Part shown: positions 1 to 4,145 of the stretch, in pieces
Position numbering within the stretch: the first letter of the stretch is position 1
Layout: the number at the start of each line of letters is the position of its first letter
From: a virus
Taxonomy: Duplodnaviria; Heunggongvirae; Uroviricota; Caudoviricetes
Virus record (IMG/VR): IMGVR_UViG_648276656_000001
Location: 1 to 4,145 of that record
DNA length: 4,145 bases
Direction: 5' to 3' (one strand)
Notes under the pieces: generated by a model
Seen by the model: only the letters and a program-made list of their open reading frames with translations
What the model was told of the DNA's origin: nothing
The model's database searches: none
Position numbers and translations under genes: made by a program

Positions 1-23
1 CCAAAAACCCCCCAAAATAACAC

Positions 24-57
24 AAAAAAAAAACCCGCCATCAGGCGGTTTTGTGTT
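24..57. terminator. Bidirectional rho-independent terminator: A-run 24-33, GC stem CCGCC (35-39) / GGCGG (44-48) with 4-nt loop ATCA, then TTTTGTGTT (49-57)
   Basis: Seen directly: a perfect 5-bp GC stem flanked by A10 upstream and a T-run downstream. On the minus strand the stem is followed by ten U residues, so it should terminate the minus-strand operon; on the plus strand it is followed by UUUUGUGUU and could also stop a transcript entering from the left. Confidence 0.8.
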
Positions 58-60
58 CTT

Positions 61-382
61 TCAGTTCTTCAATTCGAATATTGGTTACTTCTGCATGTGC
101 TATCTGCGCCCATATCATCCAGTGGTTATAGCAGTCGTTGATGTCCTCGGCTTAGATAACTCTGTTGAATGGTTCTCCATTCCATTCACCTGTGACTCGA
201 AAGTGCATTTATCATCTCCATAAAACAAAACCCGCCGTAGCGAGTTCAGATAAAATAAATCCCCGCGAGTGCGAGGATTGTTAGTTGCGCTCTGCTGCTG
301 CCTTAGCCATTACCATATCCACCCAATTTCACCAGACATGATTCTCGCAATCACTATCATAACCAAAGTGATAATCACAACT
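61..382 (-). other. About 320-nt apparently non-coding 3' tail between the last CDS and the terminator
   Basis: No ORF with a credible start and SD on either strand; the longest candidates are 14-42 codons without an RBS. Contains small imperfect hairpins (e.g. AATCC-N12-GGATT at 258-279) and a second copy of the AAAACCCGCC motif (227-236) that also forms the 5' arm of the terminator (30-39). Confidence 0.4.
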
Positions 383-1033
383 TTAACTGGCGGAATTATT
401 CACCATCCTGCTCGGCGGTTCTGGTAGCGGCATCCAGTGGGTTACATTGCGGCTCTGCGTTTCGAAGAACTCCTCACCATTGCGGACAACATCAAAAAAC
501 TCACCGTTTCGATATTGCGCATAAAGAACGAATGCGCCATCACATAAAATAATTACGTGCTGACCATCATCCGGCATTCGCTCACTACAGCTTATCCAAC
601 TATCCGGAATTACCGGAGAGTTGCCGGGTTCTTTAATGTGCAAGCGAGGCTCACCATCTTTTGGTTCAGGCCACTGGCGTTCCATGTTGATCTTCAATTT
701 ATTTTCCATAGCAGCGGTAATTTCAGCATCACTGATACCAGCACGGCGCTGTGCATCCCACAACAGGAACTGCATATCAGCCCACTCGCTGAGATCGTCA
801 GGTTCGGCTGCGGCTTCCAGTGCCTCTTTTGAGAGGTGTTTCAGTGGACCAATGGGGCCAACGCAGCCAAATGTGGAGTCAGACCATTTGGCATGCTCGT
901 GGCGAATCTGTTCGCGTTCCAGCGATGCCAGTGCGATTTCATAAGCCCGACGCTCAATATTGTCTCGGACGTCCAGGCTGCCTATACGCTCTTTGATTTC
1001 TTTAATCAGTTCTTTGTCGGTGAAAGTGGTCAT
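383..1033 (-). CDS. MazG-like NTP pyrophosphohydrolase domain (DUF550-type, N-terminal) fused to a DUF551 domain (C-terminal); 216 aa
   Basis: ATG at 1033 is preceded by AAGGAG with a 6-nt spacer and lies 1 nt past the TGA of the upstream gene. The N-terminal half carries an all-alpha MazG-like signature (LSEWADMQFLLWDAQRRAGISDAEITAAMENKLKINMERQW; compare the EELADVL...LGID...KN.RR motif). The C-terminal half ends in the DUF551-like motif ...VTHWMPLPEPP. The track's longer version starting at 1156 overlaps the upstream gene by about 120 nt and has no SD. Domain names are from memory. Confidence 0.8.
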   Translation of the reverse strand: MTTFTDKELIKEIKERIGSLDVRDNIERRAYEIALASLEREQIRHEHAKWSDSTFGCVGPIGPLKHLSKEALEAAAEPDDLSEWADMQFLLWDAQRRAGISDAEITAAMENKLKINMERQWPEPKDGEPRLHIKEPGNSPVIPDSWISCSERMPDDGQHVIILCDGAFVLYAQYRNGEFFDVVRNGEEFFETQSRNVTHWMPLPEPPSRMVNNSAS

Positions 1034-1034
1034 A

Positions 1035-1637
1035 TCACTCTCCTTTAATGCGAATGCCAGCGGCGCGGATAGATTTCCATTGTTTCCACATTCGGTTGAA
1101 GTCTGTGCCTGATAAGGTTGCGTTACGGTATCCAGTTTCAGTACGCAATCCTTCAAGCGTCGATTTGGAGATACAAATTGAATGCATTACCCATGATTCA
1201 AACAAATCACGCTCCCGGGCTTCGCAACTTTGCTTACTCATCTCTTCGATACGTTCAGCCATCGCAGCACACTCTTCAAAGTTGCTTAATGCTTTTCGCT
1301 CCCATTCGGCGCATTGTTTTCCAAGCTCTGCAATCAGCTTGTCTTTGCCTTCCAGCTCAACGCGCAGCCTCCCAACCGTTAGCGCAATATCCTCGTTCTC
1401 CTGGTCGCGGCGTTTGATGTATTGCTGGTTTCTTTCCCGTTCATCCAGTAGTGCCAGCACGGTTTCTGGTCCGGCCAGAAATTTGAAGGCGTTGAGCGCA
1501 TCAATATCCACACCGTAATCTTTAAGTTCTTGTTCACTTAACAAATCATCATCAGCTGGCAACATTAACAGGCGTTCCATTGCTGGAATTGCACGTTCCG
1601 CCGCCTCACGCAGTGCCTGGTAATTAATTTCGCTCAC
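1035..1637 (-). CDS. Phage ead/Ea22-like coiled-coil protein (probable); 200 aa
   Basis: GTG start at 1637 is preceded by AAGGAGG with a 6-nt spacer and overlaps the upstream stop as GTGA. The N-terminus [16 protein letters not shown] resembles the conserved start of ead/Ea22-like prophage proteins, and the central region is rich in charged heptads (ERERNQQYIKRRDQENEDIALTVGRLRVELEGKDKLIAELGKQ). Family assignment is from memory. Confidence 0.7.
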   Translation of the reverse strand: MSEINYQALREAAERAIPAMERLLMLPADDDLLSEQELKDYGVDIDALNAFKFLAGPETVLALLDERERNQQYIKRRDQENEDIALTVGRLRVELEGKDKLIAELGKQCAEWERKALSNFEECAAMAERIEEMSKQSCEARERDLFESWVMHSICISKSTLEGLRTETGYRNATLSGTDFNRMWKQWKSIRAAGIRIKGE

Positions 1638-2077
1638 TGGTTGCCTCCTTTGCGAAGCTGTTCAGCAATACTTACGCATATCTCTGCGCCTCTAATCAGC
1701 CCCGGAACGTTCTTGTTTGGCCCAACTTCACCATCAACAAAATCAATCATCGCGTTACGAGCCATATCCACCCCCTGCGCCCGCACTTCCGCCAAGAAAG
1801 CGTCGGTAGCTGGCGTTTCGCTGTGGTGCAGGGCATCATTAATAATCATCGCAGCAACTCCGGCCTGCCCTGCATCCGTTACCGACACATGCTCAAGAGT
1901 TACGGCCATTGCGTGTTTCAGTCCGGCGTTCTCCGCCGCCAGCGCCGCGCACTTGGCCTCCGCTTCAGCAAATTTACGCACCAGATATTCAGCGTTTGTT
2001 TCGTTGACCTTTAAATCTCGTGGAATGCATTTACCTTTCAGAAATCCATCCATCTCAATTAGTGACATTTGTTTCAT
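1634..2077 (-). CDS. Hypothetical phage protein, 147 aa (153 aa if the upstream GTG at 2095 is used)
   Basis: ATG at 2077 overlaps the upstream stop as ATGA and is preceded by GGAG about 9 nt upstream. The ORF is long and uninterrupted on the operon strand, with an Ala/Glu-rich helical segment ([30 protein letters not shown]). I do not recognise a family. Confidence 0.7.
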
Positions 2078-2238
2078 TTCTTCCCACTCCGCCACATTGC
2101 ATTCAGATATTTGTTGTCATTAACAGAGCCGAAACTATTTCTCTTAAGCAATTCCTCTCTCGATGGCATTGGCTTTACGCGTTGGCGAATAATCATTTCT
2201 GCCGGAAGAATGCTGGGATTGTATGCAAGTCCTCTCAT
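2074..2238 (-). CDS. Hypothetical small basic protein, 54 aa ([54 protein letters not shown])
   Basis: ATG at 2238 is preceded by GAGGA with a 7-nt spacer, and its TGA overlaps the ATG of the next gene (ATGA at 2077-2074). The track shows a longer 105-aa frame (2074..2391), but its 5' part overlaps the 98-aa gene out of frame and has no SD. The start is uncertain; ATG 2256 is an alternative. Confidence 0.45.
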
Positions 2239-2248
2239 GGTAAATTCC

Positions 2249-2545
2249 TCAGTCATTACTGATAGCGCCATAGCGTGAGCGGTAATTACGCAGGCGCGGG
2301 TCGATATATTCAGGGAAGTGGGTATATGTGGCTTTGCGGAATGGTCGGATTGATGTCTGGTAAATTCGCTCGCGTTCTTCTTTCTCTGCAAGCCATATAC
2401 AATGGCGAAATTCCTTTTCCTCTTTCGTTTCCTGCGGTAGCGACATTATCAGGTCGTAGTTTTTTCTGAATTTATCCAGCACCTCCGATACGGAATTGCC
2501 GGAACAGCGGCGCGCGTCGTCCGCACCATACAGAGGCGCTGGCAT
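2249..2545 (-). CDS. Hypothetical phage protein, 98 aa, sitting where P22 carries abc (anti-RecBCD) genes
   Basis: ATG at 2545 is preceded by AAGGA with a 7-nt spacer, 23 nt downstream of the ssb-like stop. The ORF is complete on the operon strand. The protein is rich in charged residues ([23 protein letters not shown]). No family recognised. Confidence 0.7.
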
Positions 2546-2568
2546 AATGGAATCCTTATGTTGCTACT

Positions 2569-2952
2569 TTAGAAGGGAATTGAATCGTCGTATTCAGGAT
2601 GATTTTGATGATTGCTACTTTGCTGCTGTTGGCTGTTTCCTGAAGTTGCAAATCCAATCTTTGCATTCAGTAATTCAAGAGTGATTGATTGACCATTTTG
2701 CCCCTGATAAACATCAACCCTGATGTTTTCTCCGGTAATTTCTACAATGCCACCTTCAACAAGAACACTACGGTAGTAATCCGCTTGCGCTCCCGGCTTG
2801 GCAAATACAACGGCGCTGTAGTTTGTCCATTCTTTCTTTTTTGTCTGGCGATCGTAATACTGAACGCCAGCACGGATGTTGAATCCGATATTTTCCCCGG
2901 CCTGAAACTCTCTTGCGGGCTTGTTTAGTCTTACAGTAATCGAGTGTGCCAT
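2569..2952 (-). CDS. ssb: Phage single-stranded DNA-binding (SSB-like, OB-fold) protein with C-terminal acidic tip ...EYDDSIPF; 127 aa
   Basis: ATG at 2952 overlaps the erf stop as TAATG and has AGGAG about 10 nt upstream. The C-terminus DDSIPF matches the conserved SSB tip (E. coli SSB ends ...DFDDDIPF) and follows a Gln/Ser-rich linker (SGNSQQQQSSNHQNH). The core (KEWTNYSAVVFAK...VEITGENIRVDVYQGQNGQ) resembles the SSB OB-fold. The track's 157-aa version begins inside erf and is rejected. Confidence 0.85.
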   Translation of the reverse strand: MAHSITVRLNKPAREFQAGENIGFNIRAGVQYYDRQTKKKEWTNYSAVVFAKPGAQADYYRSVLVEGGIVEITGENIRVDVYQGQNGQSITLELLNAKIGFATSGNSQQQQSSNHQNHPEYDDSIPF

Positions 2953-3557
2953 TAAGCAGCCGCTCCTTCTAATTCGTCTCGTCTTATGTTGTAAACGTCC
3001 TGCGCTTTGTGCTGCTCCGGTGTGCCTTCGAGCATCTTCCACGCTTTGGCGAACGCCTGTTTAAGCTCTTCCACGGTGTTTTTCTGCATTGCTGCGTCAG
3101 TGAATGCTTTTAGAACCTGTCCAGGTGTAGGTGATGGTTTTGATTGCTTTGCTGCTGCGTTCTGCTGATGTTTATGCTCGTCGGTATCTGCATCTTTCGC
3201 ATCATCAATGCCGAATAAACCATTGAGGCAATACTTGCGTGCATAAGAGCTTGTAGCTCCCGTAACTTGTGCAGAATCCATTCCTTTCTTGCTTTCTTCC
3301 TCTCGTGCTAGTGCGGTTGCCGTATGACTGTTTTCGCCATCGGTGATAGTTGCCGTGGCTTTCACGTAATACCGATCACCAATCAACACAACTTCATCGC
3401 TGATTGATAAAAACAGACCATTCAGTAACGGCTTAACGCCTTCAAGAATGTCTTCGCAGCTTCTGTATTTATATTTACCGAATGAGTTGTACTGATTCTT
3501 TGGCGCGTTCAGATTCTCCTGAATAGCTGCCAGTCTTGCATAAAATTCTTTGCTCAT
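2952..3557 (-). CDS. erf: Erf-family single-strand annealing (essential recombination function) protein, P22 Erf-like; 201 aa
   Basis: The protein MSKEFYARLAAIQENLNAPKNQYNSFGKYKYRSCEDILEGVKPLL...IGDRYYVKATATITDGE...GATSSYARKYCLNGLFGIDD matches my memory of P22 Erf and the Erf family over the N-terminal DNA-binding domain. ATG at 3557 is used; the track's TTG-extended start at 3587 has no SD. The SD for the ATG is weak (GAGA). Confidence 0.9.
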   Translation of the reverse strand: MSKEFYARLAAIQENLNAPKNQYNSFGKYKYRSCEDILEGVKPLLNGLFLSISDEVVLIGDRYYVKATATITDGENSHTATALAREEESKKGMDSAQVTGATSSYARKYCLNGLFGIDDAKDADTDEHKHQQNAAAKQSKPSPTPGQVLKAFTDAAMQKNTVEELKQAFAKAWKMLEGTPEQHKAQDVYNIRRDELEGAAA

Positions 3558-3658
3558 ATGTTTGTTCTCAGAATGGACATGGCCCAAGGAAATAACGCTG
3601 ATTTAATACTTCGACTCGGGACAAATTAAGGCATACCCGCATTCCTTCGCGGTCGCCA

Positions 3659-3817
3659 TTATGGCGATACCAGAGAGCTTTCTGCGTGTACATGCGTCTC
3701 TGTAACTTGCTCTCCTTCACTGTGGTTGCAAGTGACATGAATATCTCCTTCGTTACCGATTAATTCTTTCATCTGACGAATGAATTCTTCGTCTGACCAG
3801 TTATCTGTAAAACTCAT
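3659..3817 (-). CDS. Small acidic hypothetical protein, 52 aa (MSFTDNWSDEEFIRQMKELIGNEGDIHVTCNHSEGEQVTETHVHAESSLVSP), in the position of P22 arf
   Basis: Hand translation. ATG at 3817 overlaps the Kil-like stop as ATGA, and its TAA overlaps a further ATG (TAATG at 3661-3657). There is no separate strong SD (AGGA lies directly against the ATG), so expression would rely on translational coupling. Not in the ORF track because it is under the length cutoff. Confidence 0.45.
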   Translation of the reverse strand: MSFTDNWSDEEFIRQMKELIGNEGDIHVTCNHSEGEQVTETHVHAESSLVSP

Positions 3818-3966
3818 TTCCTGCGATACCACGGAAGGTTGATAGCTGATTTCATCGCTTTATTTGCTTCAAGCCACATTTTTGAATCACCAATAAATCT
3901 GGCTATTACTGCTTTGTTTTGTGCCGCACGAAGCATCTGGTGATTAATGGCTATTTCATTGCGCAT
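3814..3966 (-). CDS. kil: Kil-like host cell-division inhibitor peptide, 50 aa (MRNEIAINHQMLRAAQNKAVIARFIGDSKMWLEANKAMKSAINLPWYRRK)
   Basis: Hand translation. ATG at 3966 is preceded by GGAGG with a 4-nt spacer; an alternative ATG at 3936 has no SD. The core motif IARFIGDSKMWLEA resembles my memory of lambda Kil (...IATFIGDEKMFREA...), and the gene lies between a cIII-like gene and erf as in lambda and P22. Overlaps the cIII-like ORF by 16 nt. Confidence 0.6.
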   Translation of the reverse strand: MRNEIAINHQMLRAAQNKAVIARFIGDSKMWLEANKAMKSAINLPWYRRK

Positions 3967-4085
3967 AACGCCTCCAGTTGTTTCTTTGCTGCTCTGATTA
4001 ATTGTTTAACTCGGCGTGATAATTCAGATTCGTGCGGGTAGAAAGCGGACATGACGCCGCTACCCGCGAGCTGAAAGTGCATCAT
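3951..4085 (-). CDS. cIII: CIII-like peptide (putative FtsH inhibitor that stabilises CII), 44 aa (MMHFQLAGSGVMSAFYPHESELSRRVKQLIRAAKKQLEALCAMK)
   Basis: Hand translation. ATG at 4085 has a very good SD (AAGGAG, 6-nt spacer). The central stretch P-x-ES-L-x-R-(I/V)-x-(K/R)-x-L...K+L is a predicted amphipathic helix resembling lambda CIII (PSESLLERITRKLRDGWKRLIDIL, from memory), and the gene sits immediately upstream of kil. Confidence 0.6.
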   Translation of the reverse strand: MMHFQLAGSGVMSAFYPHESELSRRVKQLIRAAKKQLEALCAMK

Positions 4086-4145
4086 GGGTAACTCCTTATA
4101 TTTGATTGCATAACGAAAACGCCTCGAGTGAAGCGTTATTGGTAT

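Follow-up and report, generated by a model that had tools for sequence, protein, structure and literature searches.

A diverged SSB-like protein with a host-like C-terminal tip adjoins an Erf annealase in the early-left operon of an HK97/HK022-like phage

The 4,145-nucleotide stretch analyzed here (the window; positions 1 to 4,145 of IMG/VR virus record IMGVR_UViG_648276656_000001, Caudoviricetes) is the early-left (pL) operon of an HK97/HK022-like lambdoid phage. The core of its recombination module contains three minus-strand genes: erf, which encodes a 201-amino-acid (aa) single-strand annealing protein (SSAP) of the Erf family (2952-3557); a gene for a 127-aa protein that resembles single-strand DNA-binding protein (SSB) and belongs to the HK97 gp40 or ‘SSB-1b’ family (2569-2952); and abc2, which encodes an anti-RecBCD protein (2249-2545; Pfam PF11043, E=4e-62). 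The best explanation of this arrangement, and one that we consider probable, is an HK97/HK022-like recombination module in which a diverged SSB with a host-like C-terminal tip supports the Erf annealase. The finding is correct but already known, because a recent survey of lambdoid Rec modules (PMC12315714; Genome Res 2025) names HK97 gp40 ‘SSB-1b’ from its AF3 fold and places it in the module; the region is an ordinary recombination block of HK97/HK022-like E. coli phages. The initial annotation of this DNA, which had singled out erf and its neighbor, missed both abc2 as a third member of the module and the earlier description of the SSB-like gene.

Assignment of the first protein to the Erf family is secure on its sequence, as the initial annotation had it. 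The gene runs on the minus strand from an ATG at 3557 to a TAA at 2954-2952, and residues 5-141 of its product score 151.1 bits in the Pfam ERF model (PF04404; cutoff 25; E=3e-44); the match to PHROG 155 has E=2.2e-57. P22 Erf, which is 74% identical across residues 1-200, has been studied experimentally, and the window Erf is presumably a Rad52-type ring annealase that acts independently of ATP. Identity to the P22 protein falls from 92.8% in the core (aa 1-125) to 60% in the linker and 37.5% in the last 55 residues. The annealing core defined by the span of the Pfam match (aa 1-141; 3135-3557, minus strand) is followed by a C-terminal domain (aa 147-201; 2955-3119, minus strand) that is predicted to be a three-helix bundle: an AlphaFold2 (AF2) model of residues 140-201, a 62-aa construct, has helices at its residues 6-19, 23-36 and 42-60 and a mean predicted local distance difference test score (pLDDT) of 90.6. 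This domain may function in partner binding. Lambda Red-beta is likewise a two-domain annealase, and its small helical C-terminal domain is the part that binds partners.

The 127-aa open reading frame (ORF) extends on the minus strand from an ATG at 2952-2950 to a stop codon at 2571-2569. It is not a chance ORF, judging by its complete identity to an HK022 ORF, its 320 database relatives (the UniRef name of one is ‘Bacteriophage HK97 gp40’) and its fixed position in the gene order; identity to HK97 gp40 is ~94% in the copy at locus L014. In an AF2 model of the protein (mean pLDDT 84), the oligonucleotide/oligosaccharide-binding (OB) core is well ordered and the tail is disordered. The predicted OB-fold domain (aa 1-105; 2638-2952, minus strand) has SSB topology, and all 45 Foldseek matches in the PDB at E<=1e-3 are SSB, mitochondrial SSB or PriB, an outcome that agrees with the OB fold anticipated in the initial annotation. 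The protein also matches PHROG 44 (‘single strand DNA binding protein’; E=1.8e-28) at profile positions 89-228, the same span occupied by E. coli SSB (82-228), and it has the disordered linker and acidic (I/L/P)PF tip of the SSB family. Together with the replacement of the gene by a canonical SSB gene in some loci, described below, the predicted fold, the PHROG 44 span and the conserved tip support assignment of the 127-aa protein as a highly diverged bacterial-type SSB composed of an OB fold, a short disordered linker and an acidic IPF tip. The E. coli protein (1eqq, 4mz9, 1eyg) has the same three-part layout but differs in size (178 versus 127 aa) and linker length (~60 versus ~14 residues), and its OB domain has no significant pairwise similarity to that of the phage protein. 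The earlier description of a compact, diverged SSB-like protein is thus apt.

Several results weigh against this assignment. The 127-aa protein has no Pfam SSB match at E<=0.1, and it scores 16.4 bits with NCBIfam TIGR00621, well under the 53.95 cutoff. Among 47 family members, just six touch PF00436, and they do so weakly (best E 0.0056). An hhalign comparison of the family with E. coli SSB gives 5.5% probability; the same alignment pairs E. coli W40, W54, F60 and W88, the residues that stack on single-stranded DNA (ssDNA) in the 1EYG complex, with conserved Y32, W42, F50 and Y82 of the family, but at such a probability this correspondence is weak evidence in favor of the assignment. Against PDB sequences, a profile of the 47 relatives finds low-complexity, Q-rich matches and no SSB, and a phmmer search with the single protein returns one weak SSB match (7d8j; E=0.042). 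Because the PDB-profile, phmmer and hhalign results are all weak or empty, PHROG 44 is the one result that places the protein among SSBs at the sequence level. The HMM search proposed in the initial annotation succeeded for the Erf family and for PHROG 44 but failed for the Pfam and TIGR00621 SSB models. A sequence identity of <=15% is reported between SSB-1b and canonical phage SSB (PMC12315714), and the SSBs of these modules have not been studied experimentally, according to the same work.

The C-terminal end of the 127-aa protein (...NHQNHPEYDDSIPF) consists of a disordered linker rich in Q, N and S (aa 106-119; 2596-2637, minus strand; pLDDT <50 at residues 108-123) and the tip EYDDSIPF (aa 120-127; 2572-2595, minus strand), the latter read directly from the sequence. 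E. coli SSB, with a sequence identical to PDB 1eqq/4mz9, ends in ...PPMDFDDDIPF. Comparison of the last eight residues, EYDDSIPF versus DFDDDIPF, reveals five identities and two conservative changes, in line with the host-like acidic tip described at the outset. The tip is a property of the family as well as of this copy. An [ILVAPM]-P-[FY] end is present in 82 of 108 full-length relatives, with an acidic residue just upstream in 81 of these 82; the tip-bearing members have Pro at -2 in 82/82 cases and Phe at -1 in 81/82. In the family consensus, [FWY]-D-D-x-I-P-F, the aromatic residue at -7 corresponds to E. coli F171. Mean pairwise identity is 76% in the OB domain, 68% in the last six residues and 19% in the 16 linker residues that precede these six, and the linker varies among relatives in length as well as sequence. 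Some longer relatives (154-182 aa; P0091, P0092, P0095, P0097, P0100, P0112, P0117 and P0118 among them), most from metagenome or raw-read assemblies, have no IPF tip and end in ...NFQQPR or similar. In a few others (P0101, P0102, P0119) and in the SSB of mEp013 (L178:3025-3489), DDDIPF is not terminal but has 3 to 16 further residues after it. The tip-less and extended-tip forms could be different solutions to partner binding, or frameshifts.

Disrupted copies of the gene also weigh against the proposed role. In the HK97 reference sequence (L001:2544-2933, compared with window 2569-2600), the gp40 gene has an additional C close to its 3' end that destroys the tip, and the protein ends in ...YDDSNPILI rather than ...YDDSIPF; removal of this C would restore DSIPF followed by a stop codon. 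The extra base is either a real mutation of the laboratory strain or an old sequencing error. In mEp234 (L004:2501-2665), the gene is cut down to a 54-aa remnant that matches residues 1-49 only and is closely followed by an insertion sequence (IS) element, and two IMG/VR prophage loci have internal frameshifts in the SSB-like gene (L079:3106-3288 and L082:3106-3342). The gene or its tip is therefore dispensable for phage viability, and the function of the SSB-like protein is accessory.

The stop codon of erf and the start codon of the SSB-like gene overlap in a TAATG at 2954-2950 on the minus strand, where the TAA (2954-2952) and the ATG (2952-2950) have one base in common, exactly as first annotated. 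A strong Shine-Dalgarno sequence, AAGGAG, lies within the 3' end of erf at 2968-2963 (minus strand), 10 nucleotides upstream of the second ATG. This arrangement of an overlap and a separate Shine-Dalgarno sequence suggests that Erf and the SSB-like protein are co-expressed from one mRNA. Translational coupling, which the initial annotation had asserted, may follow from the overlap; the second gene also has this ribosome-binding signal of its own.

Conservation of the block in related phages and prophages is consistent with a working partnership. A 56-aa ORF (orf56), erf, the SSB-like gene and abc2 occur in this order in 80 of the 80 IMG/VR loci listed with the same Erf allele, loci that are mostly near-identical, and in every related locus that was examined abc2 comes after the SSB gene. 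The erf and SSB-like pair is found at >=95% identity in 556 of 5426 complete E. coli genomes (~10%), where the PGAP product name of the SSB-like gene is ‘hypothetical protein’. In more diverse loci, an Erf with a C-terminal domain of the type seen in the window is mostly followed by the SSB-like protein and otherwise by a canonical SSB. This canonical SSB (153-157 aa) takes the slot after erf in loci L097-L101 and L103; it matches PF00436 with E=1.1e-40, shares 74% of its residues with E. coli SSB and has PMDFDDDIPF at its C-terminus. That this SSB can stand in for the SSB-like protein behind one type of Erf is strong circumstantial evidence that both do one job. In these canonical SSBs (for example, L097:3110-3571), the OB domain hardly differs from the E. 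coli one, the linker is shortened and the tip is the same as that of the host. A DnaQ/Rv2179c-like 3'-5' exonuclease gene follows the canonical SSB gene in L097 (3580-4128) and in L099. The pairing extends to Vibrio phages, in which an Erf gene (56% identical) adjoins an SSB-like gene (50% identical) whose product ends in DWDEDIPF. In Vibrio phage 1.091.O (L180:2397-2861), an SSB-1b-like ORF ending in NNEPPF comes right after erf; the record leaves it unannotated and instead marks a small opposite-strand ‘TMhelix’ ORF over part of it.

Known systems offer precedents for such a partnership. In the HK620 Sak4/SSB(HkaK) pair, the last six residues of the SSB are needed to bind Sak4 and to stimulate it in vivo and in vitro (PMC5928155). 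The HK620 module resembles that of the window in gene order (annealase, small diverged SSB, abc2) and in the host-like SSB tip, NDYPPF, but its annealase, Sak4, is RecA-like, whereas the window encodes a Rad52-like, ATP-independent Erf, and its SSB is of a type, SSB-2, that is non-homologous to SSB-1b (PMC12315714). This pair is a direct precedent for the idea that a phage SSB tip supports its annealing partner. More generally, SSAPs need the last 7-9 residues of SSB in order to function, and Red-beta and RecT proteins read the last seven, which for Red-beta are those of the host SSB (10.1101/2020.04.14.041095). HK97 gp40/SSB-1b is of the same family and has the same position between erf and abc2 but differs in the tip, DDSNPILI in the HK97 reference and DDSIPF in the window. 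Modules of the Abc2+SSB+SAP (single-strand annealing protein) class were counted in 27 phages in PMC12315714 and described as an HK75-type Rec module with no nuclease; the main text of that paper makes no mention of the C-terminal tip.

From these parallels we infer the following course of events. Abc2 would bind RecC and thereby turn host RecBCD into the resecting nuclease of the module, a redirection known from P22 work summarized in PMC5928155 and one that would account for the lack of a dedicated exonuclease gene in the module. The resulting ssDNA, together with lagging-strand gaps, would be coated by phage SSB, host SSB or both. The phage SSB, with the predicted fold and the tip read from its sequence, would bind ssDNA through its OB fold and display the host-like tip. 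Erf would then be recruited to the SSB-coated ssDNA through this tip, probably via its C-terminal three-helix domain, and would displace SSB and anneal complementary strands. Because its tip is host-like, the phage SSB might also engage partners of host SSB. Competition for these partners, a second role raised in the initial annotation, is plausible given the likeness of the tips.

Could such competition be the principal function? The SSB-like protein might serve mainly as a decoy that titrates or redirects ExoI, RecQ, RecO, PriA and the chi subunit of Pol III, either protecting phage recombination intermediates or disturbing host replication, with support of Erf being secondary. Identity to the host tip at five of eight positions, with two conservative changes, and selection on the tip would both fit this idea, as would the host-takeover functions of the neighboring genes abc2 and kil. 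We nevertheless regard it as unlikely. The OB domain shows no less conservation than the tip (pairwise identities of 76% and 68%), which indicates that ssDNA binding matters and that the protein is not a mere carrier for a peptide. Moreover, a canonical SSB can take the same slot, and tight adjacency to SSAP genes in distant phages points to partnership with Erf.

It is similarly improbable that the protein is a general replication SSB, which would coat ssDNA during theta or rolling-circle replication and lie next to erf by an accident of mosaicism, with no specific Erf interaction. Phage SSBs commonly do serve replication, and the tip would recruit host replisome proteins, but this gene resides in the pL recombination block rather than in a replication module, and its start overlaps the erf stop codon. 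Invariance of the erf > ssb > abc2 order in the loci examined and retention of the pairing in Vibrio phages, where an exchange of the Erf core leaves the Erf C-terminal domain in place, also speak for a specific relationship, and the HK620 SSB, which holds the corresponding slot, has a specific stimulatory effect on its annealase. Finally, the protein might be an OB-fold adaptor of the PriB or T7 gp2.5 kind, that is, a primosome-type factor or an annealing protein rather than an SSB homologue. PriB is among the Foldseek matches, but the model lacks the long extra alpha-helix that accompanies the OB fold of T7 gp2.5, and PriB is an OB fold without a disordered acidic tail, which the phage protein has; we give this explanation very little credence.

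How might Erf recognize the tip? Mosaic breakpoints at the boundary between the Erf core and C-terminal domain bear on this question. Between the window and P22, the Erf core is kept (92.8% identity), whereas the C-terminal domain (37.5%) and the downstream gene (SSB-1b versus Abc1) are swapped. Between Vibrio phages K72 and 1.091.O, the Erf cores are 23.7% identical, whereas the C-terminal domains and downstream SSBs are 89.1% and 98.1% identical. The C-terminal domain and the SSB gene thus travel together across these breakpoints (Erf loci compared: window 2955-3119, L006:2001-2618, L003:2378-2989 and L180:1783-2385). In addition, a tblastn search of a phage collection found that gp42 of Erwinia phage vB_EhrS_59 (L005:2302-3165), a Sak4-like AAA_24 ATPase, ends in a domain 50% identical to the Erf C-terminal domain of the window. 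Annealase cores that are unrelated to each other can therefore carry this portable domain. In vB_EhrS_59, the ATPase gene has no SSB gene beside it. The one type of C-terminal domain also pairs with two unrelated SSB sequence families that have just the IPF tip in common.

These patterns hint that the three-helix domain could be a specialized receptor of the SSB tip that forms one inherited cassette together with a tip-bearing phage SSB, an idea that we put forward tentatively and think doubtful as it stands. The co-inheritance is accounted for just as well by plain physical linkage of neighboring DNA. Searches with the domain add little: a word-indexed search with the domain alone returned only short Erf fragments, and among the 20 matches of an exhaustive search of representatives, the interpretable ones were Erf proteins or fragments and further annealase families were absent. 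A fold search with the model retrieved generic or designed helical bundles, and the Red-beta C-terminal domain did not appear in the top 60, which is uninformative. Matches of so generic a kind leave the proposed link between domain and tip without structural support, a point that weighs against tip-mediated recruitment as we picture it.

The arf-erf-abc1-abc2 block of P22 is another relative of the window module. The two blocks have homologous abc2 genes, and in both the gene after erf overlaps the erf stop codon, but in P22 this slot is occupied by abc1. We considered and rejected Abc1 as a degenerate SSB or relative of the SSB-like protein: Abc1 (94 aa) matches PHROG 323 (transcriptional regulators) rather than PHROG 44 and has no SSB similarity, and in BLAST comparisons of related loci the SSB-like and Abc1 classes fall cleanly apart.

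Every convincing gene of the window is on the minus strand, and leftward transcription from pL covers cIII (3951-4085), kil (3814-3966), two small ORFs, erf, ssb and abc2. The two small ORFs overlap. One lies at 3659-3832; the other, the 56-aa ORF directly upstream of erf (3568-3738; PHROG 1723, E=9.4e-36), is conserved with the block. HK97 has them as a single fused 83-aa ORF (gp42; L014:2239-2490), but the window and several of the relatives examined, such as L079 and L082, have them in separate frames; this difference is due to an indel polymorphism, or it possibly marks a site of frameshifting. Both ORFs carry the PHROGs label ‘recombinase’, on a basis that is not visible. The 56-aa ORF is not P22 arf, since P22 carries arf at the position upstream of erf and no P22 record is among the tblastn matches listed or tallied by organism. 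Plus-strand ORFs within 2569-3557, antisense to two conserved genes, are taken as spurious.

Beyond abc2, the minus strand encodes a 54-aa ORF (2074-2238), a 153-aa ORF (1634-2095), an Ead/Ea22-like gene (1035-1637) and, in the non-essential region downstream of the latter, a 216-aa fusion of dATP/dGTP pyrophosphohydrolase (PF04447; E=3.3e-42) and DUF551 (PF04448; E=3.2e-21) at 383-1033. A scan of the window against Rfam gave no RNA-family match. Megablast shows the mosaicism that is usual in these phages, with segments of the window 95-97% identical to HK022, HK97, HK106, CUS-3, Sf101 and many Stx-converting phages.

What we add to the published description is small: conservation of the tip across the family, the tip-masking frameshift in HK97, the canonical SSB that takes the place of the SSB-like protein in some loci and the cassette-like pattern of the Erf C-terminal domain and SSB. 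There are practical implications. RefSeq/PGAP and most phage records list the 127-aa gene as encoding a ‘hypothetical protein’, an annotation that can be improved, and work built on the HK97 gp40 type sequence would miss the tip, which is the likeliest mediator of partner binding. A reasonable candidate for recombineering would be erf and ssb, with or without abc2, by analogy with the HK620 Sak4/SSB and RecT/SSB pairs. For basic biology, little changes, as this is a common prophage module that is present in about one-tenth of complete E. coli genomes and whose parts were classified in 2025. If the cassette idea is true, however, annealase C-terminal domains and SSB tips would constitute a portable adaptor system that sets the host range and partner choice of Erf-type recombinases, a role of the kind already proposed for RecT and Red-beta.

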